Assembly: GCA_964641255.1 (NCBI GenBank)
Contig: CAZXMM010000001.1
Location: forward strand, 79,757 to 143,756
DNA from: an uncultured Gammaproteobacteria bacterium
Lineage (GTDB): Bacteria; Patescibacteriota; Microgenomatia; JAMCZE01
Direction: 5' to 3'
Length of the DNA: 64,000 nt
The stretch's first letter is position 1. The number at the start of each line of letters is the position of its first letter. Of the stretch, positions 1 to 50,890 are shown one piece after another. The notes under the pieces were generated by a model. It saw only the letters and a program-made list of their open reading frames with translations, was not told the DNA's origin and did not search any database. Both the position numbers and the translations under genes were made by a program.

Positions 1-951
1 GCCGTCGTTGCCTTAGGCTGGCACCTCTTAACGATTTTTGGCAACTTTCTGGGTTCCTTTGCCGACGTGTTGCTAGTTTTGGTGTTGTCTTGGATCCTCG
101 CTTTTATCCTGGAGCCACTAGTCACTAGGTTGAGTAAACAAAAAATTTCCCCAGTGGTAGCCGCCCTTACGGTCTACTCATTTTTGGCTGTTGGGGGGGT
201 TGTTTTAGTCTGGATCATTTTGCCCACAACCATTGTCCAGCTATCACAACTATCCGAGACACTGCCTAGTTTGATTCCCCAAAACTCGGTTTGGTCAAAT
301 CAACTAGAGACTTTTCTAACCAGCTCCTTAGCCAATTCTGTCCTGGTTGTATCCCAGGTGGCTTCAACTCTGACTTCGCTAATTCTGATTTTTATACTTT
401 CCTTTTATTTCTTAATTACCAAAAACGAGATCGCCAGTTTAATTTTAAAAATTATTCCCGATCAGTACGAAGAGGACTATCTTTTTTTGCAAAATGTCGT
501 CAGTGCTACTTTTGCTTCCTTTATCAGGATTCAGGTTTTTTTGGGATTGACCTTGGGGGTGGTTACTTACATAGTACTACTGCTCCTGGGAGTGGAATTC
601 GCTCTTTCCACTAGTCTTTTTGCTGGACTTCTTGCGATGGTACCCGTCGTTGGTCCGATTCTCTTTTTAGTACCCGCCATCATTGCCGCTCTTACTAAGT
701 CGCCGCAAACAGTTATCATTGTGGCCATAGTTTTAACTTTGGCCGCCCAGCTAGTCTATAACGTCTGGGCTCCCCGACTGATGGGCAAGGCTCTTAATAT
801 TCATCCCATTGTGGTTTTGATTTCTTTTATTGTGGGCTATAAGATAGGAGGGGTTTGGGGGGCCATTTTTGCTGTTCCCGTAATCGCCTCCCTCTCAATA
901 ATTGCCAAAGATTTACTACGTTATTGGTACGAGGAGGCAGATAAGAAGTGA
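1..951 (+). CDS. AI-2E family transporter (PerM/UPF0118-like), 5' partial; the reading frame is open to the window start
   Basis: Multi-TM hydrophobic protein with the AI-2E-like C-terminal half (GPILFLVPAIIAAL...VWAPRLMGKALNIHPIVVLIS). Frame 1 has no stop from nt 1, so the gene begins upstream of the window. Stop is TGA at 949-951. Confidence 0.65.
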   Translation, partial: AVVALGWHLLTIFGNFLGSFADVLLVLVLSWILAFILEPLVTRLSKQKISPVVAALTVYSFLAVGGVVLVWIILPTTIVQLSQLSETLPSLIPQNSVWSNQLETFLTSSLANSVLVVSQVASTLTSLILIFILSFYFLITKNEIASLILKIIPDQYEEDYLFLQNVVSATFASFIRIQVFLGLTLGVVTYIVLLLLGVEFALSTSLFAGLLAMVPVVGPILFLVPAIIAALTKSPQTVIIVAIVLTLAAQLVYNVWAPRLMGKALNIHPIVVLISFIVGYKIGGVWGAIFAVPVIASLSIIAKDLLRYWYEEADKK

Positions 952-952
952 C

Positions 953-1315
953 ATGAACATTCCCCCTAAATTCTCTACTATTTGCAAAGTGGCGGGCTTA
1001 AGCAGTGAAGAAATTGACAAGCAGTGGTTGGCGACTTGGCAAGATGGCCTTTTCTCGCTTTTTAAGTGGTTGGTTAACCAGGAAAGCTTAAATGATAATC
1101 AATTAGATAGGCTAACCGAACAAATGCAACAAGCTGTCCAATTAAACGAATGCCCCAACTATCTAGCGCTATTTAAATCTATTCTGACACCCCAGCAGTT
1201 TCAAGAAACGGCAGAGCAGTTAGATGTATGTATGTTTGAAGCAATTACCCAGCGGATAAATCTCATTAAAAAGGGTGTCGATTTTTCTACCCTCCAAGTT
1301 ATAAACAGCCTATGA
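953..1315 (+). CDS. hypothetical protein (about 120 aa), first of a translationally coupled pair
   Basis: ORF 902..1315. Preferred start is ATG 953 (MNIPPKF), just after the upstream stop, with GAGGAGG 16-22 nt upstream. Its stop overlaps the next start (ATGA at 1312). No recognisable motif. Confidence 0.45.
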   Translation: MNIPPKFSTICKVAGLSSEEIDKQWLATWQDGLFSLFKWLVNQESLNDNQLDRLTEQMQQAVQLNECPNYLALFKSILTPQQFQETAEQLDVCMFEAITQRINLIKKGVDFSTLQVINSL

Positions 1316-2079
1316 GTGGATTCAATGCAACGGAAGAAGCGATAAAAACTACACTTAGTCACGCTACCGACCTAAGTCGGGCAGCTGCTCTTGGACAGGG
1401 AGGAGATGAACGAAAAAACGTTGACCTCTTAGAAAAAGGGACTCGCGATCGCAAAGTTGAACGACTATTGGGTTTTTTCCACGATACTTTGGGATTATTT
1501 GGTAGCACAAATGAGGCCACGGTTAGAACAGAAATGGCAATGATAGCAAGGCGATCCCCAAAAATAATGAAGCAGCTATCTCAAAGGCCACCTGGGGAGA
1601 TTAAAAGATTCATGGACATATATGACCCCCAGAGCAAAAATGCCGCTATATGGGATACGCAGTCAAAAACCTGGGGGCAGATTCCTTTAAGAGACAGTTG
1701 CCAATTGGACCAGAGGATACGACTGGAATTAGCTCACCTTCGGCAAGCAAATTTTCCATCGGTTAAAGGAAGTCCTGATTCAATTGTCCTAGCAAACCAG
1801 CCCGTTAATTTAACAGGCGTACGGGCAGCATTTATGGGATATAAAATACCCGGCAGTGATACAATTTACTACCGACCAAATTGGGATCTAATCCCAAACG
1901 GCAACCCACCCAAATGGGAATGGCAAGTGACTATTTTTGTACCCGATGTAAATTATAATACCCAGAGTAAAATGAGAGTGTTTGTGCTTAACGAGAAACA
2001 GGCTAAAGACCTTTGGAATGCCGCTAATCCACCTGGCGCCAAAACATTACTGCGCAACGCATTTCCTAATAAACCATAG
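1312..2079 (+). CDS. hypothetical protein (255 aa), coupled to the upstream small ORF
   Basis: Clean 255-aa ORF with a 4-nt overlap to the previous ORF. No recognisable domain. Followed by a 350-nt non-coding spacer. Confidence 0.5.
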   Translation: MSGFNATEEAIKTTLSHATDLSRAAALGQGGDERKNVDLLEKGTRDRKVERLLGFFHDTLGLFGSTNEATVRTEMAMIARRSPKIMKQLSQRPPGEIKRFMDIYDPQSKNAAIWDTQSKTWGQIPLRDSCQLDQRIRLELAHLRQANFPSVKGSPDSIVLANQPVNLTGVRAAFMGYKIPGSDTIYYRPNWDLIPNGNPPKWEWQVTIFVPDVNYNTQSKMRVFVLNEKQAKDLWNAANPPGAKTLLRNAFPNKP

Positions 2080-2433
2080 GCAACCAAGTGTAGTATTACT
2101 ACTTCCTAGCTAAGGTGCCAGGGTGCCCTTCTAGCCTTTTGACTTAGAGCGGAAAAGGGCAGCTATACGAGAGAAGTGGGCTCCCCCCCCGGGCTTTCGC
2201 GTTTACACCCTCTTGGTTCTGAGTTAGATCTCTAATTTCCCTTCCCAAAGGCTTCATGCCTTAATTATAACTTAATTCAATAAATTTTCTCTGATCCTTC
2301 ATTATCTCAACTCCGCTTAGTAAATAATTGAGAGGATCATTGCTAGCTTAGAAGACCTATTACTGAATATAGGGAAGACCTTAGTGTTAAGTACGATCTG
2401 AGCTAGCCCTTATTAAAACTCGGTCACGACTAC

Positions 2434-3576
2434 CTAACTTACAGTCTTTATACCGTCTCGCTGGCTAATAAAACTGTTGTTACTTTGAATGCTAGACTCT
2501 ATCTGTCTTGATATAGTGCCCACCGTTGTCCCCAGCTTAGTCCTGATATCCTCGAACAGAGCTGTATATTTTTTCACCTCATCACTAGCTTCTAGATCTG
2601 AACAATAACCATGTAGCAGTAGTTCCAAACCAACCCCTTTAGTGATTACTAAATCGATTAAGGCGGCAACCTCCAATGGGTAGATATTAAGCTGGGATAA
2701 TTCGTCGACATATCCAGCCATGCTGTCTGCAGACACAGGACGCTTGTCAAGCAGACAAAGAGTTATAAATTCTGTTATTCCCTCATTAAGCCATCTAAGA
2801 GTGCTCAGCGATTCTCTTTTTTTCTTAATGACTCCTCCATACTCAACATAGGTTCTTCCGGCTAATAGCGCGTGTACCAATTCATGAAAAAGAGCATGTT
2901 GTTGAAACTCGGGAAAGGCTGCAATAATTATGTAGGGCATTCGAGCAAATTTACCCGACTCACCCTTCGACATCGCTGTTGTTTTGACATCAACCCATTT
3001 ACCTACTTCATAGTCAAAATCCAGCGGATCCACAAAACTAATATCTCCTATGTATTGAAGGCGCTCAGAAAGGAGACTGACAATCTCTTGCTGGCTTAAG
3101 TTAGGAAACAAGGCTGAACAAACACCAGGCGCGCTTTCAAAAAACTGGTCAATATATTTTTGTTTATTTTCTTTAAATTGTATTTCTGCACTCTTAACTC
3201 TCTCCCAGTGGGCTGGTAAAAGTTTTTTTATAGTGGCGTGGTCAATTAATTCCAACCTTTCAGCAAATTCCTCAACAGACCGGCTTGTTTTTAAGTTGGC
3301 TAAAAGCAGACTTTCCGCATCAGATAGATTAGTGGTGGCATCTCCACTTAGAAACGCCTCTGCCCAATGCCGTTTCCAGCCTATTGCCCAATTTTTTTTT
3401 AATTTATCGTCTATATTCTTTCTCTCGTCCTTTAGTGTCTGTTCAAACGATTCATCATCTGGCGTACCATAAAACAACATGCCAAGTCTCTGCCTAAAAT
3501 CGGGAATCAATGTAACCTGTTCCACTGGAGAATAAACCTCTCGGGCAAATTCAGCTCGCGGTACTAATTTTGGCAT
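2434..3576 (-). CDS. zinc metallopeptidase-like protein, MA clan / gluzincin-type motif (HExxH ... WLNEGxxE)
   Basis: HELVH followed 26 residues later by WLNEGITEF. This closely mirrors the M1-family HExxHxW...WLNEGFA gluzincin signature. No signal peptide is evident. Confidence 0.5.
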   Translation of the reverse strand: MPKLVPRAEFAREVYSPVEQVTLIPDFRQRLGMLFYGTPDDESFEQTLKDERKNIDDKLKKNWAIGWKRHWAEAFLSGDATTNLSDAESLLLANLKTSRSVEEFAERLELIDHATIKKLLPAHWERVKSAEIQFKENKQKYIDQFFESAPGVCSALFPNLSQQEIVSLLSERLQYIGDISFVDPLDFDYEVGKWVDVKTTAMSKGESGKFARMPYIIIAAFPEFQQHALFHELVHALLAGRTYVEYGGVIKKKRESLSTLRWLNEGITEFITLCLLDKRPVSADSMAGYVDELSQLNIYPLEVAALIDLVITKGVGLELLLHGYCSDLEASDEVKKYTALFEDIRTKLGTTVGTISRQIESSIQSNNSFISQRDGIKTVS

Positions 3577-3591
3577 GTAAGTAGTATCTCG

Positions 3592-4881
3592 TTATTGTGT
3601 CCCAATTCCATAATTGGGTAGCACCTGATCAAGGCCCGATTTAACGGTTTCGAGGGCTGCCTGGTAACCCCCACCCCGCTTGGTAGCGTTAATGGCATCC
3701 AGATAGTACTGACTCACTCGAGAGTTAATTCCGGTATCACCATCGTTCGTAAAAGAAGCTAAGTACCAGCTCTGGGCAGCGGGAGCGGCGCTAATTACCA
3801 CCCCAGCTCTGGGGTCGTCAGCTAGCAGTGAAGCCATATCTACCCTTGAGTACGGTTCCCCAAATCCCCGGATCGTGGTTTGAGCAGCATATAGCTTAGT
3901 AAGAACGTCCTTACTAGAGAGATATTTCAAAAAATCGAAGGCCGCTTTGGGGTGCTTACTTTTAGCCGAGACCCCCTCAGCCCAGTAAGTAGCAAAATTA
4001 ACAGGATCGCTGCCGGGCAGCTGAGGCACAGGAATCAGCTTAACTTTTAACTCGGGGTTTAGCGCCATAATGTCAAAGTAGCGCCAAGACGGTCCGAAAT
4101 ACATCGCTAGCTTGCCCTGGGAAAAAGCCAAAGTAGAGGGATCCATAGTCTCATCCCACACCCGGTCTACACTCATAAAAGTGGTGTAATACTCAAGCGC
4201 CTTCTGGGCGGCGTCACTACTGGGGTCCCGGTTTAAATCCACTCCCGCCTGAAGCATCATAAGGGCAAGAATGTCCTGCCAATGGTCAATATTGACGGCC
4301 GTACCCAAAGCAGCACCAGCCGTTTGGATCTTCCCCCCCTCACTAACGGTCAACTTTTTGGCCGTTTCTCGAAATTCGTCCCAGGTCGTCGGGTATGTGG
4401 CGTTACCCCGGGTAAAAATGTCTTCGTTAACAAACAACGTCAGGGTTTCAATTTCTAAGGGGATAGCCATTGGTCTATTTCCTAGAAACAGGTCGTTTCT
4501 AGCGGTGGGGTAAAAAGTGGACTGAAAACTACTTGGAGAATAGATATCCGTGGGCACTGGAGTGAGTAGGCTTCGCATCATGGGTACCCAGGTATTGTGA
4601 ATCCGAACAATATCCGGTCCATCTTCGCGGGTAAGCGCGTTATTTAGTCGGTCACGGTAATTAATTGGCGACTGTTTACTATATTTAATCGTCACCCCAG
4701 GATGAGTCCGCTCATAATCGGCTACCACTGTTGCAAACACCGAATCTGGCTCCCAAAGTCCCCAATAAGTCAGGCTGGCGGTCTCGGGTTTGCGGATAAA
4801 AAAAGTCAAGGCAATGACCCCACCGATAAGAATCAGAAGGAAAAGCGCTCCAACAACAATATAAAGGAACTTGCTGTTCAT
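3592..4881 (-). CDS. ABC transporter extracellular solute-binding protein (family 1, sugar-type), N-terminal membrane anchor
   Basis: N-terminal TM helix, then LTYWGLWEP...VVADYERTHPGVTIKY. Overall pattern and length are typical of carbohydrate SBPs. No permease or ATPase genes are adjacent, so it is an orphan. Confidence 0.65.
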   Translation of the reverse strand: MNSKFLYIVVGALFLLILIGGVIALTFFIRKPETASLTYWGLWEPDSVFATVVADYERTHPGVTIKYSKQSPINYRDRLNNALTREDGPDIVRIHNTWVPMMRSLLTPVPTDIYSPSSFQSTFYPTARNDLFLGNRPMAIPLEIETLTLFVNEDIFTRGNATYPTTWDEFRETAKKLTVSEGGKIQTAGAALGTAVNIDHWQDILALMMLQAGVDLNRDPSSDAAQKALEYYTTFMSVDRVWDETMDPSTLAFSQGKLAMYFGPSWRYFDIMALNPELKVKLIPVPQLPGSDPVNFATYWAEGVSAKSKHPKAAFDFLKYLSSKDVLTKLYAAQTTIRGFGEPYSRVDMASLLADDPRAGVVISAAPAAQSWYLASFTNDGDTGINSRVSQYYLDAINATKRGGGYQAALETVKSGLDQVLPNYGIGTQ

Positions 4882-4914
4882 AGGTCTAGCCCTTACAATT
4901 AAGCTACCAGATTA

Positions 4915-6348
4915 GTGATAGTGATGCAACGAGCACGACATTTTATCCACTTTCTTTTTTTCTTTTCCCTGGGCTTTAGTGCCACGGGGTTAGTTTTAGT
5001 AACCGCAGTTTACCTGGCTTTTTCTCTGCACTTTCAGGATCGCGTTTACCCTGGAGTCACCATCGCCGAAACAGAGGTGGGAGAAATGACCCCCAGTGAG
5101 ATCGAGTATTATTTTTCAAAAAAACAATTTACCAATCTTATTATTACTCTTGACTCCAGTGTCGGATCGGTTTCGGCTAAAGCGTCGGATCTGGAAATAA
5201 AACTAGATAGTCAGTTGATGGCCACCCGAGCCATGTCAGTGGGTCGGCAAACCAAAAATCCCTACTACAACTTCTTACAAATCCTCTCTGCCTGGCAGGG
5301 CGAGATCGATCTACCTCTAGAAATTAATTACAGTGAGGAGGCAATTGTGAAGTTACTTGCCCCCTTGGCTGGGAAAATTGAAATTGCCCCCAAAGACGCC
5401 GTCTACGCTTTTACTCCTGGCGCCGGGCCAGATAAACGGGGCCGAGTCGTTGCCTTTGAAAAATCCAACAACGGGCAAGCTATTGATTATGAGCGGCTCA
5501 CTAAGACGATAACTACTGAGGCCCGCGGCTACTATTTTTCTTCTGACCCAGAAGTAGAGCATCTCACCTTACTAGTTCCTACTAAGATTGTAACCCCAAT
5601 GGTTACTTCGACTGTCGCTAACGAGTTAGGTATTAATGACTTACTCGGCACCGGGGAATCTTTTTTTTACGATTCGATCCCAGGGCGGGTTTACAATATT
5701 GGCTTGGGTACCGAGAAAGTTAACGGCCGGCTAATTGCGCCCGGAGAAATATTCTCTTTTGCCGAAGCTATCGGTACTGTCTCGGCTGTTTTTGGCTTTC
5801 AAAAGGCCTACGCAATTGTCCAGGGTAAAACCGCCCTAGACGACGGCGGGGGCGTTTGTCAGGTCTCAACCACTCTTTATCGAGCAGTGCTTAACGCTGG
5901 ACTACCAGTGACCGAACGGGTAGGTCACTCCTATCGTGTTGGTTTTTATGAACAGGGTGGGTTTAAACCGGGAATGGATGCTACGGTTTATCCACCCAAA
6001 CCCGATTTCAGGTTTAAAAATGATACCGGGAAAACCATTCTTATTCAGGCTACTTTTGACAAAATTAACTACAAATTAACGTTTGAGCTATTTGGTACTT
6101 CTGATGGTCGACAAGCCACCATTGAGGGTCCGGTTATTGTCTCGACAATTGGGTCGGGTGAGCCAATATACCAGGATGACCCGAGTTTACCCTTGGGACA
6201 GCTAAAACAGGTTGAAACCGCCCATGCTGGAGCCAAAGTTTATTTTAAACGCACCGTTGTTAGGAATAACCGGACACTCATTAATGAAACGGTGTGGACC
6301 GATTATGTTCCCTGGCCCGCTCGCTACCTTCGAGGCACTAAAACATAA
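4915..6348 (+). CDS. VanW family protein (N-terminal TM anchor)
   Basis: C-terminal GGGVCQVSTTLYRAVLNAGLPVTERVGHSYRVGFYEQGGFKPGMDATVY matches the VanW domain signature. GTG 4915 and ATG 4924 are alternative starts. Confidence 0.7.
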   Translation: MIVMQRARHFIHFLFFFSLGFSATGLVLVTAVYLAFSLHFQDRVYPGVTIAETEVGEMTPSEIEYYFSKKQFTNLIITLDSSVGSVSAKASDLEIKLDSQLMATRAMSVGRQTKNPYYNFLQILSAWQGEIDLPLEINYSEEAIVKLLAPLAGKIEIAPKDAVYAFTPGAGPDKRGRVVAFEKSNNGQAIDYERLTKTITTEARGYYFSSDPEVEHLTLLVPTKIVTPMVTSTVANELGINDLLGTGESFFYDSIPGRVYNIGLGTEKVNGRLIAPGEIFSFAEAIGTVSAVFGFQKAYAIVQGKTALDDGGGVCQVSTTLYRAVLNAGLPVTERVGHSYRVGFYEQGGFKPGMDATVYPPKPDFRFKNDTGKTILIQATFDKINYKLTFELFGTSDGRQATIEGPVIVSTIGSGEPIYQDDPSLPLGQLKQVETAHAGAKVYFKRTVVRNNRTLINETVWTDYVPWPARYLRGTKT

Positions 6349-20694: not shown

Positions 20695-20850
20695 CTATTT
20701 TTTACCGGCCCGTTTGACAGTGAGCGTCTTGCGACCTCTCAGAATCCGGCGCTTTAGGACCTTTTTGCCACCGGCTGTCGCCGTGCGCGCCCGATACCCG
20801 TGCTTGCGCATTCGTTTAAGTTTCTTTGGCTGATAAACTCTCTTTGGCAT
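20695..20850 (-). CDS. rpmH: 50S ribosomal protein L34
   Basis: Not in the ORF track because it is under 60 aa. Reverse-strand translation gives [51 protein letters not shown], which matches the L34 consensus. Confidence 0.9.
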
Positions 20851-20859
20851 AGTTGGACT

Positions 20860-20889
20860 ATTATCTCAGTAAGAGGTCACTTTTCCAAG
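20860..20889 (-). promoter_or_regulatory. putative sigma70-type promoter of the rpmH operon
   Basis: On the minus strand: TTGGAA, a 17-nt spacer, then GATAAT, ending about 9 nt before the rpmH ATG. Hexamers found by eye only. Confidence 0.3.
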
Positions 20890-20907: not shown

Positions 20908-23070
20908 TCACTTTAGGCTCTCCAGCTCTGTAGCTAAGGCCTGAAAGAGGTTTTTATAAAAACGTAGTGCTCGATAATCACTGCTGCTACGAATCAATCC
21001 GCCAAAAAGCCGAGAAATACTCTCGGGCATATTACGATTATCTGTTCGCGCTAGCCCAGACTCACACACCTCAACAAATTCCGGTAGAATACTTGCTACC
21101 CAACTTTGGTTTCCGTCTAAAAAACCCCTTAGCCCGGGGCTAAGGGTAGACATTAGACGGTCTCGTGCTTCTTTTACTGGGTACAGTTGTTCTAGTCGTT
21201 TTGCCACGTTTTGGGGTATTTCTATAGCCAAATTGGGCTGGGCTAGAATTCGATTTCGCGTCACCGCGAGGGGGATTCTGGGATAAATCATGTTATCTAG
21301 TTGGTCATTAATGTCCCTCTTTCGCTTGGTCCCCCATAATACCGCTAGTTTTCGATGCAGCTCACTCAAGATCTCTTTTTGTTGGACTCCCCCCAGAGTG
21401 CCGAGTGCAATCTTAGCTAATGCTAATTGAAACTCCCCATTGCTTAGGTCCTCTCCACCCCAAGCCACTGCACCATCAGTAAAAAAATTACTTATCTGTT
21501 TTTTTGATTTTGGAGTTAATAACCCCCAGACCCTCAAAGCCTCGGCTTCCCAATTAGTGGTAGCCAGTAGTCGCTCGGTAAAAGGGTGGTCTGCATCGGT
21601 TATAACTAGTGAGGTACGAAGGGTACTTTTGTTAAAGGCGGATACCCCAATATTTCCCGAACTGGGTAATTCCTCAAGCGTCACTAGTCCATGGTCTGGC
21701 CCCACCGCGTCAGCAAGTCTAGTTGAACCGGCACCTAAAGTCACAAAATCTGCAATGGTTTGCTGGGTTTCCTGAGAAATTTCACCAACACGAACTTCCA
21801 GCTGGGCCACCTGATTAGGATCCTCGCCCAACTGCTTATCGGTAAGAACCACTAGGTCGGTCCTAGCTTCGTCAGGCTTGATTAATACAATTTCATCCCT
21901 CTGCATTACTTCTTTAACCTTTTTCTCACCTTCCTGAATCAAAATTTGGGTTATTGTTGTAGCCCGAAGTCTATTTCTGGCATTAAATCTGGCTACCAGT
22001 TCCGACTCTTGATCTGCCCTGTCTTGACCGCCTAGGTTAAAATCATTCTCTCCGGTTCGCAATCGCTCGGAAATTTGAGAGTCTAACGCTCGCAGCAACT
22101 CTTGAAAGTCCTCCTCGACGCCACCAACGTGTTCGGGTATAAAATTTCTCGCTAACCACATCGGGTCGGCCCCAAGCTCCCAAAGCATTGCCAACCGATC
22201 GGTTATTTGCTGGGCCGCAAACTGGGGATCAATTTTTCCGCCCAAACAATCAATCACATCAGAATGATTGGCTAGTGAGTGAGCAATTGTTTGATTGATT
22301 TCTCTGGATATGTAGCTCGTACCGGCATAGGCAAGCGCTTCAATATAGAGCGTGGCTGCATTGTTTTCATGAAGTTTCTTCAGCGGTGCCTCTTTAGCTG
22401 CTAAAGATCTTTGGTAAAAATAATTAATTGCAGCTCCAGCCAAAGACCACCCTCCCAGAGTCACAAGCGCATAGGCTAGTCTCAGTACAGGATTGGCATT
22501 TTGTCGCATCCACCATTTAGCAGCGTTTTCAAGCACCAGTGTAGCCTCTGCAGTATCTGCTGCCTGACCAAGATGGACTTGTTCGTGAAACAATGTGTCA
22601 ATATCTTCCCCGGGGACTAATCTTCGAAACCAATCTTTTAGTCCTAAATTGTCCAGCTGCGTTGAAACTAAAATAACATTGTTCCACCAATCAGCTAAAC
22701 CAAGCGCAGAAGCCCCGTCGCTTTTTCTTTGAATTAAGCCTTTCTTTGTTTCAACCCTTGGTCCGTCACCGCCGAGATTAGCCGCCTTAATTGATAAGGC
22801 AAATGGATCAAAGCCCAACCAGTTAACTTCCAAATCCGTCTTTTGCCCAACAGCCTGCACCACCTGGTCGTGTAGCCCTATCCAATCATCAGAACCGAGC
22901 CGGTCAATAACTGCATAATAGGGAGAGAAGTGGATGAGTTTGTCATTAGTTTCTGCCTCCAATCTAGAGGCGACCTCACTTAACCGATCCGCGTTTATAG
23001 AATGGGAGGTCAACTCCTCACCTTCCGCGTCTGCACCCACTTCATAATCACCAATTTTTTCATCAGCCAT
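20908..23070 (-). CDS. large hypothetical protein (720 aa) with one HExxH motif, located between rpmH and dnaA
   Basis: Long clean ORF. Acidic N-terminus, FHEQVHLGQ (HExxH), no TM helix or signal peptide, no other recognisable domain. Confidence 0.5.
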   Translation of the reverse strand: MADEKIGDYEVGADAEGEELTSHSINADRLSEVASRLEAETNDKLIHFSPYYAVIDRLGSDDWIGLHDQVVQAVGQKTDLEVNWLGFDPFALSIKAANLGGDGPRVETKKGLIQRKSDGASALGLADWWNNVILVSTQLDNLGLKDWFRRLVPGEDIDTLFHEQVHLGQAADTAEATLVLENAAKWWMRQNANPVLRLAYALVTLGGWSLAGAAINYFYQRSLAAKEAPLKKLHENNAATLYIEALAYAGTSYISREINQTIAHSLANHSDVIDCLGGKIDPQFAAQQITDRLAMLWELGADPMWLARNFIPEHVGGVEEDFQELLRALDSQISERLRTGENDFNLGGQDRADQESELVARFNARNRLRATTITQILIQEGEKKVKEVMQRDEIVLIKPDEARTDLVVLTDKQLGEDPNQVAQLEVRVGEISQETQQTIADFVTLGAGSTRLADAVGPDHGLVTLEELPSSGNIGVSAFNKSTLRTSLVITDADHPFTERLLATTNWEAEALRVWGLLTPKSKKQISNFFTDGAVAWGGEDLSNGEFQLALAKIALGTLGGVQQKEILSELHRKLAVLWGTKRKRDINDQLDNMIYPRIPLAVTRNRILAQPNLAIEIPQNVAKRLEQLYPVKEARDRLMSTLSPGLRGFLDGNQSWVASILPEFVEVCESGLARTDNRNMPESISRLFGGLIRSSSDYRALRFYKNLFQALATELESLK

Positions 23071-23165
23071 TGTGACAATTATATAGCCTAGCTAATAAAC
23101 AAAATAATACGGACTCAAAAAAAGCTAAAATTTTCGCTGACCCGCTCATTACCTCCTTGCTTTTT

Positions 23166-23174
23166 TGTGGATAA
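23166..23174 (-). promoter_or_regulatory. DnaA box (TTATCCACA on the minus strand) in the dnaA promoter region
   Basis: Perfect 9-mer tgtggataa, 21 nt upstream of the dnaA ATG. Consistent with DnaA autoregulation. Confidence 0.5.
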
Positions 23175-24622: not shown

Positions 24623-24860
24623 TGGGGATTACCTGTGCATAAATTATTCATCGTTGGGGATATGTGAACAATTTTTGGTGACTATCAACATATCCCCATT
24701 TTAGGTCAATTTATCCCCAAAATTATCCACAATAGTCTCTCCAAGTTATCCACAACGAAAACTACCCATATGTTAGGGCCGTCAACAAGCCGCAATTCAA
24801 ATCTCTACACAAATCCCCACTGCCTACTACTATTACTACTAATAAGAAACTACTAAACCT
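24623..24860. promoter_or_regulatory. candidate oriC: DnaA-box cluster plus an AT-rich unwinding element between dnaA and dnaN
   Basis: Two perfect TTATCCACA boxes (24723-24731, 24746-24754), TTATCCCCA (24711-24719) and a TATCCCCA partial (24691-24698). On the opposite strand, TAATCCCCA (24623-24631) and ATATCCCCA (24655-24663). An AT-rich tract follows (actactattactactaataagaaactactaaa, about 24820-24860). Confidence 0.55.
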
Positions 24861-26070: not shown

Positions 26071-26856
26071 ATGGATGTCTTAACCTCGACCAATAACCCC
26101 CTCGTTAAACGCATTAAAAAGCTGTTACTTGATCGGGTATATCGCTATGAAGAGGGAGCCTTTTGGTGTGATGGGGTGAATTTCGTTAGTCAGGCAATTG
26201 ATAATGGTTGGGAAATAGACACTCTTGTGTTTGTTCCCCAAAAAATAGACAGCGACTTTAAAAGAGCGGTTTGGACTAAGGCGTTGGGTGTCAAAAAAGT
26301 AGCTGTTTCTGAATCTGTCTACCAGGCACTCTCGAGTAAAAAAGACATTCAAGGTGTGGGGGCGATTATTAAGATGAAAACGGGCGACACTCTTGAGCGG
26401 GGATTAGGAGTAGTTCTTGAACATCTCCAAACACCCGGTAATCTCGGTACCATTATGCGAACTTGTTTGGCGTTTGATATTAAATGCCTCTATCTTATTG
26501 CTCCAAGTGTAGATCCCTTTAATCCCGATACGGTAAGGGCATCAATGGGGGCGCTGTTTGGATTAAAAATTGTAGTGATTGCTGACTTTGCAGGTTTTGC
26601 CAGTCAAATTAAGAAGAACCTGCGTTACTGCATCGGTACCTCACTTCAGGAAGCAACGCTCCTGTCTAATTACTCAAGACAGCTAGAGGGAACGGAACTT
26701 ATTTGGTTTGGTAATGAGGCCAAGGGACTATCAATAGAAGCTAGGCGGTTATGCCAGGATAGTCTTAAAGTGCCGATTAGTCCCATAGTAGATTCTTTAA
26801 ACGTTGCCGAGTGTGCCGCCATCATTCTTTACACCCTGCTCCACGGGAGTAGATGA
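26071..26856 (+). CDS. SpoU/TrmH-family RNA 2'-O-methyltransferase
   Basis: LEHLQTPGNLGTIMRTCLAFD ... VDPFNPDTVRASMGALF ... LNVAECAAIILY are SPOUT class motifs. The 3' end overlaps the convergent VirB4-like gene by 60 nt. Confidence 0.8.
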   Translation: MDVLTSTNNPLVKRIKKLLLDRVYRYEEGAFWCDGVNFVSQAIDNGWEIDTLVFVPQKIDSDFKRAVWTKALGVKKVAVSESVYQALSSKKDIQGVGAIIKMKTGDTLERGLGVVLEHLQTPGNLGTIMRTCLAFDIKCLYLIAPSVDPFNPDTVRASMGALFGLKIVVIADFAGFASQIKKNLRYCIGTSLQEATLLSNYSRQLEGTELIWFGNEAKGLSIEARRLCQDSLKVPISPIVDSLNVAECAAIILYTLLHGSR

Positions 26857-28872
26857 CGACGCCGCAGTAGGCGTAGTATCGACCTGTGCGGAGGGGGTGG
26901 GGCCATCTGGATTAATCATTGGTACTTCGGGATTATTGTCTACACTCGCTTCGGAAGCGGCCCGCTCTGCCGCTTCTCTTTTTTGAGCTAAGTCACGAGG
27001 ATTAGTACTGATAAGATTGTACTCTTCTGGCGAAGCAACAACTCGCATGGCAACGTGGGAGGATCCGGCAAAAAATAGTCCTTCGCCAACGTTTGAGGAG
27101 AGGAGAAGGCTTTTCTCTCCCTCGGATAGATAAAATACCTCTGAAACTTTATCAATCGCCGCGGGAGACTGTTTCATTAAAATTTGAATCGAGCTATTAG
27201 TCACCACAGTTTTACCAAGGTCTGTTGCCAAAAAGTCCTCGATATCTTGGGTAATCGTTGTCAGGCCAAGATAATATTTTCTGGCTCGCTTGGCAAAGTT
27301 CCATAAGAATTCAGCTGAGGCTTGGTTTTTCATCAGGTACCAGGCCTCATCCACGATTAGGATACGCCGATGTAAATCTTTCTTAACGGAGTTCCATACA
27401 AAGTCCATGATGATAAAGATAGCGAGACTTCTTAATTGGTCCTCGAGATTCTTAAACGAGAAGACTGTAAAGGGGTTATTAAGTTGTAGGTTGCTTCGTT
27501 GATTAAAAATTGTGCCAAAGCTTCCTTTGACGAATTTTTCGAGACGCAGAGCAATATTTTGGGCTTTTTCTGTTTCCATTCCCACCAAAACTTTATAGAA
27601 GTCTTCCAAAATTGGCGGTTCCTTGCTGTGGGTTTTTATATCATAGGTGATTCCCTTTTCGTGATAGGTAAGCTCTAGGGCGTTATGGATAATGGCGTCT
27701 TCCTCGGCCGTAGTGTCACCGACCATGATTTTAATAAGTCGCGTGAGAGTGAAGCCAATTTTATATTGCAAGTCATTTTCTTGGGGATCGTCGTTGGTAC
27801 CAGCCAAATCAAAGGGGTTGATATGGGTATTACTACTAAAGGAGAAAGAAATATAATCACCACCCACTGATCTGGCTAGAGTTTCGTACTCTTCTTCCGG
27901 ATCAATAATGATGACTCTCGTGTCAAACATTAAGGCTCGCAGGGCTTCGAGTTTCACTAAGAAACTTTTCCCTCCGCCGGATTTACCCAAAACTACTTCG
28001 TTAGCATTTTCCAGACTAAAACGGTCGAAGATGATGAGTGACTCATTATGTTCATTGATACCGTAGAGCACCCCCTCATTAGCTGTCAGCTCTGAGGAGG
28101 TAAAAGGAAAGGTAGTGGCAAGGGAAGTAGTGTCCATGTTCCGGGTGATCATGAGATTGTCCTGACAAAGGGGCTGGGTAGTTTTAAAGCCGTCCTCCAT
28201 TTGCAGAGTGGCCTTTTTGCCATTAAGAAGGAGTGATCCTAGAGTAGAGGCTACTTGCTTACTGATTTGGTCGAGGTCGGCTACTGAAGTAGCTGAAATA
28301 GTGAAGTAGAGACCAAACTGAAAGAACCGCTCCGCTCCTTTAGCTAATTGTTCCTGCAAAGCCAGGGCATCGTCTAGAGCTACTTGAACACCAGGATCAA
28401 TGACTCGTCCCCGTTTAATATCACTTTCGATGGTCGCTTCCATCTCGGCAATTTTTCGTTTTAGGTCGGACAAAATATCCCGAGATTCAACTGGATAGAT
28501 AAACATGCCAATATCAATCGAGGAGTCAAAATCAATAATGGGGTCTAACCAGTTGGCAGCAACAAAGCGGGGATAGCCAGCGATAAAAAGTGTTCTTAGA
28601 TAAGTATCACCTATTTTGATGTGGTCAAAGTCCACCTCGATCTTTTCTGGAGCGATTAAGTCTACAACCGACTCAAAAGCTTCACTTGGTTTCATAGTGG
28701 CAGGATCTGGTTTCGTAGTGACCAAAGACGCGTCACTCGTAGGAATCCCAGCGATGGGTTCCCACTCGGGTTCGGCTTTTGGGACATCGCTAACTTTTGC
28801 TCGCCCTGGTTTTGCTAAATCGGCAGCAATTTTAGCAACCGGTGCTTTCTTTTTTAAAAAGGGTAGATTCAT
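26797..28872 (-). CDS. VirB4/TraC/TrbE-family T4SS ATPase, middle and ATPase domains
   Basis: GYPRFVAANWLDPII (VirB4 middle-domain motif), Walker A LGKSGGGKSFLV and Walker B RILIVDEAWYLM. A low-complexity Pro/Thr/Ser C-terminal tail follows. Confidence 0.8.
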   Translation of the reverse strand: MNLPFLKKKAPVAKIAADLAKPGRAKVSDVPKAEPEWEPIAGIPTSDASLVTTKPDPATMKPSEAFESVVDLIAPEKIEVDFDHIKIGDTYLRTLFIAGYPRFVAANWLDPIIDFDSSIDIGMFIYPVESRDILSDLKRKIAEMEATIESDIKRGRVIDPGVQVALDDALALQEQLAKGAERFFQFGLYFTISATSVADLDQISKQVASTLGSLLLNGKKATLQMEDGFKTTQPLCQDNLMITRNMDTTSLATTFPFTSSELTANEGVLYGINEHNESLIIFDRFSLENANEVVLGKSGGGKSFLVKLEALRALMFDTRVIIIDPEEEYETLARSVGGDYISFSFSSNTHINPFDLAGTNDDPQENDLQYKIGFTLTRLIKIMVGDTTAEEDAIIHNALELTYHEKGITYDIKTHSKEPPILEDFYKVLVGMETEKAQNIALRLEKFVKGSFGTIFNQRSNLQLNNPFTVFSFKNLEDQLRSLAIFIIMDFVWNSVKKDLHRRILIVDEAWYLMKNQASAEFLWNFAKRARKYYLGLTTITQDIEDFLATDLGKTVVTNSSIQILMKQSPAAIDKVSEVFYLSEGEKSLLLSSNVGEGLFFAGSSHVAMRVVASPEEYNLISTNPRDLAQKREAAERAASEASVDNNPEVPMINPDGPTPSAQVDTTPTAASSSTPVEQGVKNDGGTLGNV

Positions 28873-28879
28873 ATTATTG

Positions 28880-29563
28880 CTATGACGCGGTACTGTTACT
28901 ATTACTTGTCTTCGTAGTCACGGGGGGTGGGGTAGGACTAGCAGCGGTGCGGTGATTGTAGATATCATGAAACAGGTCGATTAATTCCACAGTAGTTAGT
29001 TGTCTAGCCCGAAGCCCCAGTCGTCCGAGCTGTCTTAAAATATGATCCCGCTTGGGTAGTAGTGCGGTTTTAGCTTTTTCGACAATAGTTTCGGCCGGGA
29101 GTGGAAGACCGGTCGTTTTTTTCTTAAATAGTCCGCCGGCGCTGGAAGCCACCCCAAGCTCCAAAAAGCTAAAAGGAATGGCAATGTAAAATTTTTTATC
29201 GAGCACGTTGTTATTTTTTACTGTATTTGCAATGAAATCGCGATATTTTGCGATCTGATCAGCCAGGAGAGGATTTTTTTGTTTTTCTCGAGCCTCTTCA
29301 AGGAGAGCCATATAGGCTGAAACATCCTTTTGTTGGCTACGTACCACAATTTGAATGGAAAAATTGAGCGAGTTTAATAGACCAGCGTAAGCGTAGATAA
29401 TCGACTCCTGTTCTTGTTCTGACAGCAGGCCAAAATTAACCGCCGACACGGCAATTATTAGAGCCACCGAGCCGTCTTTGATGATAACCAGGTCGTCAAC
29501 AATATCCGCCACCTGCAGATGATCTTGTGTAGTTCCTTTAATAGCTATTTTAGTTACATCCAT
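28880..29563 (-). CDS. VirB4-family N-terminal domain, encoded as a separate 227-aa ORF
   Basis: TTQDHLQVADIVDDLVIIKDGSVALIIAVSAVNFGLLSEQEQESIIYAYAGLLNSLNFSIQIVVRS follows the conserved N-terminal pattern of Gram-positive-type VirB4 homologues (PrgJ/TcpF/ConE). Its stop at 28880-28882 lies 7 nt upstream of the ATPase ORF start at 28872, in a different frame. Confidence 0.6.
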   Translation of the reverse strand: MDVTKIAIKGTTQDHLQVADIVDDLVIIKDGSVALIIAVSAVNFGLLSEQEQESIIYAYAGLLNSLNFSIQIVVRSQQKDVSAYMALLEEAREKQKNPLLADQIAKYRDFIANTVKNNNVLDKKFYIAIPFSFLELGVASSAGGLFKKKTTGLPLPAETIVEKAKTALLPKRDHILRQLGRLGLRARQLTTVELIDLFHDIYNHRTAASPTPPPVTTKTSNSNSTAS

Positions 29564-29577
29564 ATGCGCTAGCGTTA

Positions 29578-30834
29578 CTAGGTTACCGCTATCTTGGGTT
29601 TGATTTCTAGTGGTGGCATGACCCCACCACTGAGAGTAATTTCCAACAGATCAAAATTAAAATTCTGTTTTTCCAGCTCTAAATAGTAGGTACCATTCTC
29701 TAGGGGAGTGCTCCCGATAAACTGGCCGACCTTGTTAGCTTTAAGTGCCCGAATCGAATTGCCGGCTTTGTCTTTGATGATAATGATGGTTCCGTCAATT
29801 GGGTTATTGTTTTGGTCGAGGACCACCCCGTTTATGACATTAGGTATTTCTGTAAGAGTGATGGGGGTAGGAGGCTTGATCACCTTATCGACTACCCGAA
29901 TCTGAGGTGGGCGGCGTTCAATAACTGGCATTTGATAGGCAGTAGTAGTTAGTGGGGCAACTCGCTGGCTGGTAATTTGCGACCGAAGGTTGGTTATTTG
30001 GCTGCTCAGTTTGCTCTTTTCTAGAGTCAAGGCGTCTAATTTTTCTTGCTCTCGGGGCGATAGTTTACCTACCAAAACCAGACTGTTTTTAAGCTCGTCA
30101 ATTTGCATCATCAGCGCCTTGCTTTGGTTGACAAGCTCGTCAACTAGCGCCTCGTTCTTAGTCAGTTCTGAGGCGTTCTTCTCGAGTTTTTCCGCCGAGG
30201 TGGCACGACGTCTTGCCTCCAAAGCGTCAATTGTCACCACCTCCTTAGGGGGAATGTTGTCCTTTGGCTCATTTAATTTTTCCTGACGGATTTTTTCTAG
30301 GGCATCGATAGACACAATGGTTTGTCTCGACAAGTCCTCTTGAACCGGTGGGGTTACTGGGGTGGTATCAGTAAGAGGTAGGGTCGTGCGGTTGGCCATT
30401 AATTGTTGTACGTTGATTTCTCCACCACCCTCAGGTGGTTTTGGGGCGCTAGTGTTTTGTGGTTGGGCCATAGTAATCGGTGTAAAGTTTAATTGCGGGG
30501 CGCTGGGTAATGATTTTTTTTCAGTTGGAGCTGCTGTTTTGGAACCTTGTCGTTTCCAAATATAGACAGTTGGTTTATAGATAGCTCTAAAAAAATTAAC
30601 CAACCAAATGTCTAGTGGCCTTTCTTCGATGGGCAAAAAGGCCAGAGCGACCCCAAAGAGGGCAAAAAAGATGGCGAAGGGATACTTAAGAACCGGATGC
30701 CAATTGGCAATATAGAAAACATAAGCCAGTATGGCCCCACCAGCTAGTTCTCCAAACTGTTTGAGGGTCATGTCACCGACCAGTTTGAACTTAAATCCAG
30801 TAATGTCTTGGGGGACAGCGTGTTGTTCCATCAA
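29578..30834 (-). CDS. PrgI/VirB3-like T4SS membrane protein fused to a coiled coil and a C-terminal carboxypeptidase-regulatory-like beta-sandwich domain
   Basis: N-terminus VPQDITGFKFKLVGDMTLKQFGELAGGAILAYVFY resembles the PrgI family (VPKDIR.YE.KF.GPFT.K.F..IAGG). Next come two TM helices, a Pro/Thr linker, a roughly 150-aa heptad-rich coiled coil (ELKNSLVLVGKLSPREQEKLDALTLEKSKLSSQITNLRSQ), then NGVVLDQNNNPIDGTIIIIKDKAGNSIRALKANKVGQFIGSTPLENGTYYLELEKQNFNF. Confidence 0.55.
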   Translation of the reverse strand: MMEQHAVPQDITGFKFKLVGDMTLKQFGELAGGAILAYVFYIANWHPVLKYPFAIFFALFGVALAFLPIEERPLDIWLVNFFRAIYKPTVYIWKRQGSKTAAPTEKKSLPSAPQLNFTPITMAQPQNTSAPKPPEGGGEINVQQLMANRTTLPLTDTTPVTPPVQEDLSRQTIVSIDALEKIRQEKLNEPKDNIPPKEVVTIDALEARRRATSAEKLEKNASELTKNEALVDELVNQSKALMMQIDELKNSLVLVGKLSPREQEKLDALTLEKSKLSSQITNLRSQITSQRVAPLTTTAYQMPVIERRPPQIRVVDKVIKPPTPITLTEIPNVINGVVLDQNNNPIDGTIIIIKDKAGNSIRALKANKVGQFIGSTPLENGTYYLELEKQNFNFDLLEITLSGGVMPPLEIKPKIAVT

Positions 30835-48369: not shown

Positions 48370-49683
48370 GTGAAAAAAATCAACACCATTTTTATTGCCA
48401 ATTTGTCAGAAATTTCTCTAAACCTGGTGCACTTTATGCATCCCCAGGAGGTCGAAGCGGAGATTTCCGAAGACCATGACTTGTGTGATCGCTTTCTTTT
48501 TTCCCTGCCAAATAATTCGTTACTCCTGACTCCCTATCTGCTGGATCAAGACTTTTTTACAGATAGCTGCACACTTCTGCGACTAAGAAATATTATTAAT
48601 TTGGCTCCCAAAACCATTGGTCAGTCCATTTGTGAGGCCATAAATGCCGATGCCGATCTTTTTGAAAAGTTAGTCGTAACCATTAAAAATAATCCGGGAG
48701 TGGCTATTGTCTCCTACGCTGCCACCAGTGAGTTTCTAGCGCTAGTGGAGCAGCTACGTAAAAGACAACTGGTGTTTACCACTCCCGAAGCTCCAAGTGC
48801 TCAGGGCCACTGGGTTTATGATTTTTTTGGTTCCAAGTGCGGCTTTCGTCAGGCTAAAATGCCGGCTCCCCCGGGGTTCATCTGTTCTAATAGAGAAGAA
48901 CTACTGGGTTGGAGCGAATATTTTTTAAAGGAAACTGCCGGGTGTGTCATTAAAACCAATCGGGGATTAGCTGGGGCTGGACTACGAATTATTAGAAAAA
49001 CCGAAGTCGGCAAAAGCCCACGGGAATTTGTGGCCCAGATTTTAGACTCTGAAAATTACTGGCAAGATTTCCCATTAGTAGTTGAAGAATTTCTCCCGCC
49101 TGATATCACAATATGTGGGGGGGCACCCAACATCGAGCTAAAGATACAAGGTGGTCGAGTGACTCCACTTTACGTATGCAGTATGCGAATCAGTAACGAG
49201 GGAGTATTTCAAGGAATCGAATTTGGCAAGGATAGTGTCCCGGTGATCATAGCCAGGCAACTGCGGGTCTTTGGTTTAGAATATGGGCAAATACTTAAGC
49301 AGTATAACTATCGGGGGTTCTTTGAAATGGACTTTGTCTGGACTAGGGGCCAAAGGCTAGTTCCTATAGAGAGTAACTTGCGTCGGACTGGTGGAACTCA
49401 CGCTTTCGAGTTAGCCAGGCGACTGTTAGGAAATGACTTTTATCGCCATTTTTATCTTACTACTAACAACCGTTCTCCGATCCCTGCTTTAAAAAAACTT
49501 TCCTATCATGAGGTGCGTTCTAGGGTTGCCCCCCTGCTGTTCCCAATCGCTACAAGCAAGACAGGGGTAGTTCTTACTGTAACTAAGGGTATTGGTCACG
49601 GGCGGCTGGGTTATGTCGTCATTGGCAAAACGCGGCAGCAAGCCCACCAAATAGAAACGGCGCTACTTAGCTTACTCACATGA
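48370..49683 (+). CDS. ATP-grasp fold enzyme (ligase), substrate unknown
   Basis: GCVIKTNRGLAGAGLRII (Lys/Gly-rich loop), VVEEFLPPD and GFFEMDFVWTRGQRLVPIESNLRRTGG (E-x-N-x-R, Mg-binding motif of ATP-grasp enzymes). Confidence 0.5.
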   Translation: MKKINTIFIANLSEISLNLVHFMHPQEVEAEISEDHDLCDRFLFSLPNNSLLLTPYLLDQDFFTDSCTLLRLRNIINLAPKTIGQSICEAINADADLFEKLVVTIKNNPGVAIVSYAATSEFLALVEQLRKRQLVFTTPEAPSAQGHWVYDFFGSKCGFRQAKMPAPPGFICSNREELLGWSEYFLKETAGCVIKTNRGLAGAGLRIIRKTEVGKSPREFVAQILDSENYWQDFPLVVEEFLPPDITICGGAPNIELKIQGGRVTPLYVCSMRISNEGVFQGIEFGKDSVPVIIARQLRVFGLEYGQILKQYNYRGFFEMDFVWTRGQRLVPIESNLRRTGGTHAFELARRLLGNDFYRHFYLTTNNRSPIPALKKLSYHEVRSRVAPLLFPIATSKTGVVLTVTKGIGHGRLGYVVIGKTRQQAHQIETALLSLLT

Positions 49684-50890
49684 ATTTAGCTTTTGCACTT
49701 CGTCCCCGAACTCTGGATGAATTTTTTGGACAAACCCACTTGGTGGGTCAGGGAAAGATTATTAACAGGCTAATTACTGGGGGACAACTCTTTTCAATGA
49801 TTTTGTGGGGGCCACCCGGAAGTGGAAAGACGACTTTAGCAAAAATAATTGTCCAGTCACTTAAGACTGAATTTTTTGAACTATCGGGTGTTACTGCTGG
49901 GAAAGAGGAATTGTTGAAAGTGATTGCTCTGGCTAAGGAAAATCAAAAACAGGGTAAATCCACTATTCTTTTCATCGATGAAATCCACCGCTGGAACAAG
50001 TCCCAACAAGATGCCCTTCTCCCTTATGTAGAAAATGGTCTACTCACTCTTATTGGCGCGACAACCGAAAACCCCTCGTTTGAAGTTATTAGTCCACTTC
50101 TTTCAAGAGCAGGGTATTTGTTTTAGAGGGGCTAGCCGCAAGAGACTTAGAAAGAATTATTGACCAGGCTCTAAGTGACAAAGAAAGGGGGCTGGGAAAA
50201 TTAAACAAAAAAATAAACCAAGCTGGAAAGGAGCTCATTGTTCGGCTCTCGGGTGGGGATGCCCGCATTGTTCTTAATGCTCTAGAGATGGCAGCGACTG
50301 CTTATGATGAGAAGGTGATTACAGAAGGCATCATTCAAGAGATTTTCCAGACAAAATCAGCTGGTCTTTACGACAAAAAAGCGGATGAGCATTACAATGT
50401 AATTTCTGCTTACATCAAAAGTGTTCGGGGATCTGATCCTGACGCCGCCCTCTACTATCTGGCCCGAATGTTGGCAAGCGGAGAAGACCCAAAGTTTATC
50501 GCCAGACGCATGATCATTCTGGCCTCCGAGGATATTGGTTTGGCTGATCGGGGGGCACTAATTCAGGCAAATGCGTGCTTTGAAGCGGTCAGTAAAATTG
50601 GTATGCCGGAAGCCCAACTTACTCTTGCCCACGGAACACTTTATTTGGCTACTGCCAAAAAATCCCGAGGGGTGGCTAACGCTCTGGAAAAAGCTAAAGA
50701 AGTGGTGGTGCAATTTCCCAGCGAACCTATCCCGCTTTTCCTGCGTAATGCCCCGACCAAGCTAATGAAAAATCTGGGTTATGGTAAGGAGTATCGTTGG
50801 GGAGAAGATTATGTAGGTCCCACGGTCAAACGGTCTTTTTTACCAGATAGGATAAAAGATAAGAAATTTTACGAAGAAGCATCCAAATAG
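49680..50890 (+). pseudogene. rarA: replication-associated recombination protein A (MgsA/RarA, AAA+), disrupted by a frameshift near 50110-50115
   Basis: ORF 49680..50126 holds Walker A GPPGSGKTTLAKI, Walker B ILFIDEIHRWNK and ends ...LLSRAGYLF*. The RarA consensus continues in the next frame from about 50104 (RVFVLEGLAARDLERIIDQAL ... GDARIVLNALE) into ORF 50288..50890. A missing A in gcagggtat relative to gcaAgggtat explains the break. Confidence 0.7.

Follow-up and report, generated by a model that had tools for sequence, protein, structure and literature searches.

In Patescibacteria, especially in Microgenomatia and Paceibacteria, genes of type IV secretion systems (T4SS) are commonly found near dnaA, dnaN, rpmH and rnpA (Quinonero-Coronel et al. 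2025, PMC12102498). The presence of accessory genes together with T4SS genes near the origin has already been described for these bacteria, and gene dosage has been discussed as a possible reason for the position of the T4SS genes near dnaA (PMC12102498). We analysed a stretch of 64,000 nucleotides (the window; GenBank assembly GCA_964641255.1, contig CAZXMM010000001.1, positions 79,757 to 143,756) from an uncultured bacterium placed by GTDB in the Microgenomatia. The window resembles the MPF-FATA-like T4SS neighbourhood of that description (PMC12102498) in having virB4, a traC-like gene and prgI close to dnaN, dnaA, rpmH and rnpA. Between its rpmH and dnaA lies an additional open reading frame of 720 codons, ORF720, which is the subject of this report. 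ORF720 is a genuine protein-coding gene and a lineage-specific accessory gene. Its product may be a soluble, zincin-like (gluzincin-type) metal-dependent hydrolase, a tentative reading to which we assign a probability of roughly 0.35.

The first-pass annotation of the window described ORF720 as a 720-aa gene between rpmH and dnaA, running in the direction of rpmH with 124 nt left to dnaA, and the coordinates agree (Table 1). It also described an acidic protein with a single HEQVH, no transmembrane (TM) helix or signal peptide and no obvious repeats, which the computed properties bear out. The isoelectric point is 5.0, the N-terminus is acidic and not of the signal-peptide kind, and the highest mean hydropathy over 19 residues (Kyte-Doolittle) is 1.33, so that no TM helix is expected. 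Comparison of the protein with itself detected no internal repeats (z < 1), a motif check found no P-loop, and HExxH occurs exactly once. An open frame of 720 codons in DNA of 46% GC is not explicable by chance. The frame is uninterrupted, its GC content, GC content at third codon positions (GC3) and codon usage lie inside the range of 29 neighbouring genes, and a homologue at the protein level is encoded on an unrelated contig; ORF720 is therefore a real gene, and this descriptive part of our account is near-certain. A decaying or spurious frame would fit the orphan status of the protein and the fact that at least one other gene of the window (rarA/mgsA) seems frameshifted, but it is hardly credible for a frame without interruption and with native codon usage, whose full-length homologue is of similar size (730 aa) and significantly similar, and which has a promoter-like -10 box, spaced from the start as is typical of the genome.

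The family to which ORF720 belongs is extremely small. No recognisable domain had been noticed at first, and this stands: no family matches were found in Pfam, NCBIfam, PHROGs or PADLOC at E values up to 10, and none among PDB sequences. A word-indexed search of 5.8 billion clusters returned ORF720 itself only. A HMMER scan of 1.84 billion cluster representatives returned one other protein, P0002 (730 aa, E = 4e-5), which makes one relative among about 15 billion proteins; ORF720 and P0002 are each the singleton of their own 90% cluster. Pairwise BLASTP aligns the two over residues 64-405 of ORF720 with 24% identity (E = 8e-14). Measured against shuffled sequences by Smith-Waterman alignment, the similarity reaches z = 29 in the N-terminal region and z = 5.1 between the C-terminal halves, and the two proteins are therefore probably homologous along their full length. 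Searches of the same libraries of hidden Markov models (HMMs) with P0002 gave nothing meaningful; the best library match, PADLOC RmrA (E = 0.0012, 15.9 bits), is absent from ORF720 and was discarded. Matches in PDB to FICD, ACE2 (off the active site) and STAT1, obtained with the full protein, the profile or the motif regions as queries, were regarded as noise. With the alignment of ORF720 and P0002, no relative was confirmed in genome, metagenome and viral collections, and the HMM built from it found nothing in 2468 open reading frames of the comparison loci described below and no paralogue of ORF720 elsewhere in the window. Plasmid and phage tblastn searches and IMG/VR yielded no relative either. 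The DNA pattern FDPFA...HEQxH had one match in viral contigs, which is attributed to chance, as it lies on the opposite strand of a RecT-like gene, on a contig of high GC content.

The two proteins keep a small set of motifs (positions in ORF720/P0002): GFDPFA at 86/82, HEQxH at 162/151, E[AS]LAY at 244/221, GVExD at 317/295 and RFxAR at 361/346. HEQxH and E[AS]LAY stand out as identical islands, their flanks being otherwise about 0-25% identical. Of the seven His residues that the aligned region contains, four are invariant, compared with an overall identity of 24.6%. From H162 to E244 there are 82 residues in ORF720; the corresponding spacing in P0002 is 70. The HEQVH motif, the only lead in the initial description, is thus strengthened, in that the sole remote homologue keeps the HExxH. 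We regard HEQxH together with E[AS]LAY as suggestive of a gluzincin-like metal site, a weak lead drawn from the sequences of the pair. Other readings of the conserved residues, as a relaxase, a coupling protein, an HD-domain, HEPN or Fic protein or a di-iron protein, were rejected, as the P-loop, HD, Rx4-6H or paired ExxH motifs are absent or not conserved.

On the hydrolase reading, the family of two would have a core (residues 64-405) with H-E-Q-x-H on one predicted helix and the invariant Glu on a later helix. The two His and the distal Glu would be the ligands of a zinc ion, E163 would activate a water molecule, and the helical C-terminal half would serve the binding of a substrate or partner. 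This predicted arrangement would be like that of the gluzincins (clan MA(E); M48 HtpX/Ste24, M41 FtsH), in which HExxH is likewise on a helix and the invariant Glu follows on another helix further along, and the ExxA context of the Glu in ORF720 resembles the gluzincin motifs NExxSD and EGxA. ORF720 differs from HtpX, Ste24 and FtsH in being soluble and free of TM helices. It further differs from gluzincins in the Gln that follows the candidate catalytic Glu, in having no predicted beta-sheet before the motif and no detectable similarity to them, and in its much larger size, which includes an unrelated C-terminal half of 300 aa.

A number of points weigh against the hydrolase reading. Neither zincins nor any other family showed sequence or profile similarity to ORF720 in Pfam, NCBIfam and PDB at E values up to 10. 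Gln is an atypical residue for the first x of HExxH, a position usually hydrophobic in zincins, and a spacing of 70-82 residues between HExxH and Glu is far beyond that of M1 and M4, though comparable with that of M48 and M41. Conservation of the motifs was judged on two sequences only, and is suggestive rather than proof. AlphaFold2, given the two-sequence alignment of ORF720 and P0002 as input, returned unusable models, the mean predicted local distance difference test (pLDDT) score being 33 when the full-length protein was modelled and 44.5 when residues 64-396 were. HEQVH and EALAY were each helical in both of these low-confidence runs, which were read for secondary structure only, and the models, untrustworthy as they are, have almost no beta-sheet before the HExxH helix, where zincins require it. 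Comparison of a low-confidence model with PDB structures by Foldseek retrieved only generic or designed helical bundles (TM-score <=0.2, E >=0.13). Lastly, the family is associated with T4SS genes at two loci only, and such genes are common in these genomes, which makes the association no more than a lead.

Several of these points would suit a non-enzymatic helical protein, in which the His and Glu residues have a structural or partner-binding role and which acts as a scaffold, an adaptor, a chaperone or a translocated substrate of an episymbiotic T4SS/pilus apparatus. This is the main rival to the hydrolase reading, and we hold it to be only slightly less probable. The mainly helical prediction, with no beta-sheet near HExxH, speaks for it, as do the lack of similarity to any hydrolase family and the Gln in HEQxH; HExxH and a distal Glu that persist as isolated islands at 24% identity are, however, easier to understand as a metal or catalytic site. 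Where such a protein is linked to the T4SS, the genomic context can be added. P0002 adjoins four T4SS_pilin genes, virB4, traC and prgI of the window are 3.7 kb from ORF720, and the absence of a signal peptide and TM helix is compatible with a non-Sec substrate. On the other hand, there is no homology to any known T4SS component, three housekeeping genes intervene between ORF720 and the T4SS genes in the window, and T4SS genes are so frequent in genomes of the Candidate Phyla Radiation (CPR) that their co-occurrence at two loci is weak evidence.

The two loci can be compared directly with the MPF-FATA-like neighbourhood. ORF720 and P0002 are both within 4 kb of T4SS genes, and P0002, which is divergent from a gene for a secreted 1025-aa protein and the four pilin genes, abuts pilin genes of the VirB2-like kind. 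The locus of P0002 (L001) has no dnaA, rpmH or DnaA-box cluster near it, and it shares no gene with the window other than P0002/ORF720. Unlike the genes of that neighbourhood, ORF720 matches no T4SS component profile: it has no Pfam match to VirB4, TrsD, PrgI/VirB3, VirB6, VirB2 or VirB1, where its neighbours match TraG P-loop, TraC and PrgI. It is also absent from other CPR loci of the same layout. A virB4 gene close to dnaA occurs in 17 of the comparison loci, with up to 62% identity to that of the window (26797-28872), and ORF720 is not present in the 16 other CPR loci of the panel that carry it. ORF720 is therefore not a core T4SS component. A more specific proposal is that ORF720 and P0002 are the first members of a Patescibacteria-specific family of soluble HEQxH...E metallohydrolases tied to the T4SS/pilus apparatus, for example in processing or as an effector transferred to the host bacterium, and that ORF720 is co-expressed with dnaA through a divergent promoter with a DnaA box; we consider this conjunction improbable. 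The 1025-aa neighbour of P0002 (L001 6851-9928, minus strand) is Cys-rich and has no Pfam match on record; it contains the sequence 'HLGNEPN', which we take to be reminiscent of clan GH-A glycoside hydrolases.

The position of ORF720 was assessed with a panel of 80 dnaA loci from GTDB species representatives, in each of which rpmH was placed by tblastn. In 55 of them rpmH is upstream of dnaA and divergent, with a median start-to-start gap of 438 bp (range 88-5441) vs 2344 bp here. The claim that a gene between rpmH and dnaA is unusual held up well: only one of the 55 loci, that of Paenibacillus (L046), has open reading frames of at least 100 aa in this interval, and the position of ORF720 is rare among the comparison loci. 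On the minus strand of the window rpmH is followed by rnpA, yidD, yidC and jag, and dnaA is followed by dnaN, as identified by Pfam. The best syntenic comparator, a Levybacteria locus (L002), has DUF4012 ... jag-yidC-rnpA-dnaA-dnaN ... virB4-traC-prgI in the order and orientation of the window, with no insertion upstream of dnaA and no ORF720. ORF720 is therefore an addition to a conserved block. The gene is missing from L002 and likewise from L007, L011 and L054, all of which have virB4, traC, prgI and DUF4012, and from the partly syntenic CPR loci L004 (virB4, traC, prgI) and L010 (virB4, DUF4012). By tblastn and HMM searches, none of the 80 loci encodes a relative.

At the outset it was asked whether the gene is always origin-proximal, and a locus that is not conserved at the origin in relatives was named as a refuting outcome. 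That outcome is the one observed: syntenic relatives are without the gene, and the one homologue is away from dnaA and rpmH, which means that the family is not tied to the origin. The position beside dnaA is most likely lineage-specific and incidental. The picture that would emerge is of a lineage-restricted and independently transcribed gene added to the block DUF4012 ... jag-yidC-yidD-rnpA-rpmH / dnaA-dnaN ... virB4-traC-prgI, its site being an accident of insertion in a region that gathers accessory and T4SS genes in Patescibacteria.

There are three perfect DnaA boxes in the window, at 23166-23174, 24723 and 24746, and the latter two belong to a cluster in the 309-nt spacer between dnaA and dnaN. 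The minimum of the cumulative GC skew, at about 24-26 kb, coincides with this cluster. Because the box cluster and the skew minimum are both found there, oriC is most likely downstream of dnaA, in the dnaA-dnaN spacer, and not upstream. ORF720, initially placed 'at the origin', is thus adjacent to the origin and not inside it, with the box cluster and skew minimum beyond dnaA. The accompanying argument of a 'highest-dosage' position is weak for slow-growing CPR bacteria; in the work that PMC12102498 cites on this point, replication-associated dosage effects matter chiefly in fast growers (Couturier & Rocha 2006).

A function of ORF720 at the origin or in replication is not supported. Such a factor, co-regulated with dnaA through the 124-nt intergenic region and its DnaA box and influencing initiation, perhaps by degrading or regulating DnaA, would account for the divergent promoter region held in common with dnaA, for the perfect DnaA box within it and for a position rare among bacteria. 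Against this, P0002 is not beside dnaA, rpmH or DnaA boxes, all syntenic relatives are without the gene, and dnaA most likely separates ORF720 from oriC. One DnaA box immediately before dnaA is moreover the layout usual for autoregulation, and the box here is about 96 nt from the ORF720 start. We judge a replication-linked role very improbable. The box at 23166-23174 probably serves autoregulation of dnaA, and may possibly co-regulate ORF720 with it.

The insertion relative to conserved synteny, and the patchy distribution with two members, might also reflect cargo of a mobile element, or a toxin or defence gene, that was acquired recently and landed in the rpmH-dnaA spacer. The composition argues otherwise, as GC, GC3 and codon usage are typical of the genome. 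There are no flanking direct or inverted repeats and no tRNA gene in the entire window, and a Pfam scan of the products of 20 neighbouring genes (11.8-40 kb) found no integrase- or transposase-like domain. Together with the lack of PADLOC and PHROG matches and of plasmid, phage or IMG/VR relatives, this leaves recent mobile cargo a poor prospect, if a slightly better one than a replication-linked factor.

Signals for expression were sought on both sides of ORF720. A perfect TATAAT upstream of its start (Table 1) probably acts as the -10 box for an ORF720 mRNA without a leader. The spacer of 57 nt to rpmH contains a second promoter-like element, and rpmH thus probably retains a promoter of its own. 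With a -10 box for ORF720 and a promoter-like element for rpmH, ORF720 is probably an independent transcription unit. Shine-Dalgarno sequences are scarce in the window: by a loose definition (GGAG, GAGG or AGGA no more than 25 nt from the start) they precede 8 of 45 genes. Hexamers of the -10 type (TAnnAT-like) end 4-12 nt before the start codon in 16 of the 45, vs 4.3% of random positions. This suggests, as read from the genome sequence, that leaderless or short-leader mRNAs are widespread in this organism. The sequence AAGGAGG has seven sites in the window. One of them, at about 23158 on the minus strand, is in the spacer between dnaA and ORF720 and is followed after about 2-3 nt by the ATG of a 28-codon hydrophobic open reading frame, MSGSAKILAFFESVLFCLLARLYNCHNG (window 23063-23160), the stop codon of which overlaps the ORF720 start (ATGGCTGA).

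The host lineage seems to be very poorly sampled, if it is represented at all. Patterns derived from ORF720 did not detect the source genome among the GTDB species representatives. In a scan of 185,579 GTDB species representatives, the best identity to the host DnaA among the matches listed was 41%, and a probe made from the DnaA N-terminus found no close relative in JGI metagenomes. A second assembly (contig L082 of Logan SRR14932609) shows 100% identity over 11.4 kb, and so offers no within-species polymorphism for a test of nonsynonymous to synonymous substitution (dN/dS). ORF720 is like other lineage-specific orphans of CPR/Patescibacteria in having no homologues outside a tiny clade and in coming from a small genome (a contig of about 0.95 Mb) of an undersampled lineage. 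Unlike typical orphans of this kind, it is unusually large, lies between rpmH and dnaA, and has a motif resembling a metal site that is kept across about 24% identity.

To our knowledge, few of the proteins on which the episymbiotic lifestyle of CPR bacteria depends have been identified, and this lifestyle has been shown to require functions linked to the T4SS. If the HEQxH...E site is catalytic, ORF720 and P0002 would represent a new and very narrowly distributed family of metallohydrolases in the CPR. For now, ORF720 adds to the orphans of the CPR a protein with a suggestive motif, a useful candidate for structural genomics that challenges no current concept. The locus indicates that an accessory gene can interrupt the near-universal adjacency of rpmH and dnaA while oriC, here most likely in the dnaA-dnaN spacer, keeps its place.

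Table 1. Coordinates in the window of ORF720, its parts and the surrounding features.
Feature	Position	Strand	Remarks
ORF720	20908..23070	-	720-aa orphan protein, ATG start; acidic, soluble, non-repetitive; based on the open reading frame list, family searches and composition
Conserved N-terminal domain (residues 64-405)	21856..22881	-	part clearly common to P0002 (BLASTP and Smith-Waterman values in text); tblastn of P0002 matches 22881-21976
C-terminal half (residues 406-720)	20908..21855	-	mostly helical (AlphaFold2 secondary structure); weak similarity to C-terminal half of P0002, score reached by 0/300 shuffles
GFDPFA (residues 86-91)	22798..22815	-	longest run of identity with P0002
HEQVH (residues 162-166)	22573..22587	-	H, E, Q and H invariant in P0002 (HEQNH, 151-155); candidate metal-binding/catalytic motif
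EALAY (residues 244-248)	22327..22341	-	ESLAY in P0002; E244 invariant (E221 in P0002); candidate third metal ligand
Divergent control region common to ORF720 and dnaA	23071..23194	.	124 nt between the two starts
Perfect TATAAT	23078..23083	-	ends 7 nt before ORF720 ATG; no Shine-Dalgarno sequence there
Perfect DnaA box (TTATCCACA)	23166..23174	-	about 20 nt upstream of dnaA ATG, 96 nt from ORF720 ATG
Promoter-like element TTGGAA-17-GATAAT with TG	20860..20888	-	inside the ORF720-rpmH spacer
rpmH (ribosomal protein L34)	20695..20850	-	downstream neighbour of ORF720, co-directional, 57 nt away; tblastn matches in 55+ loci
dnaA	23195..24604	+	divergent neighbour of ORF720; Pfam Bac_DnaA 9e-66
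DnaA-box cluster, likely oriC	24634..24754	.	2 perfect boxes (24723, 24746) and 2 with one mismatch (24634, 24711) in the dnaA-dnaN spacer
T4SS-like genes (VirB4/TraG P-loop, TraC-like, PrgI)	26797..30834	-	3.7 kb from ORF720, next to dnaN-SpoU; by Pfam; context only

Two further features of the window concern other genes. virB4 and the SpoU methylase gene are convergent and overlap by 60 nt (26797-26856). The rarA/mgsA gene (49680-50890) occupies two open reading frames, one for the AAA part (49680-50126) and one for MgsA_C (50288-50890). As the frame of the downstream one continues without a stop codon back to 50102 or further, a single frameshift near 50100-50126 separates the two parts; the split reflects either a pseudogene or an error in the assembly.

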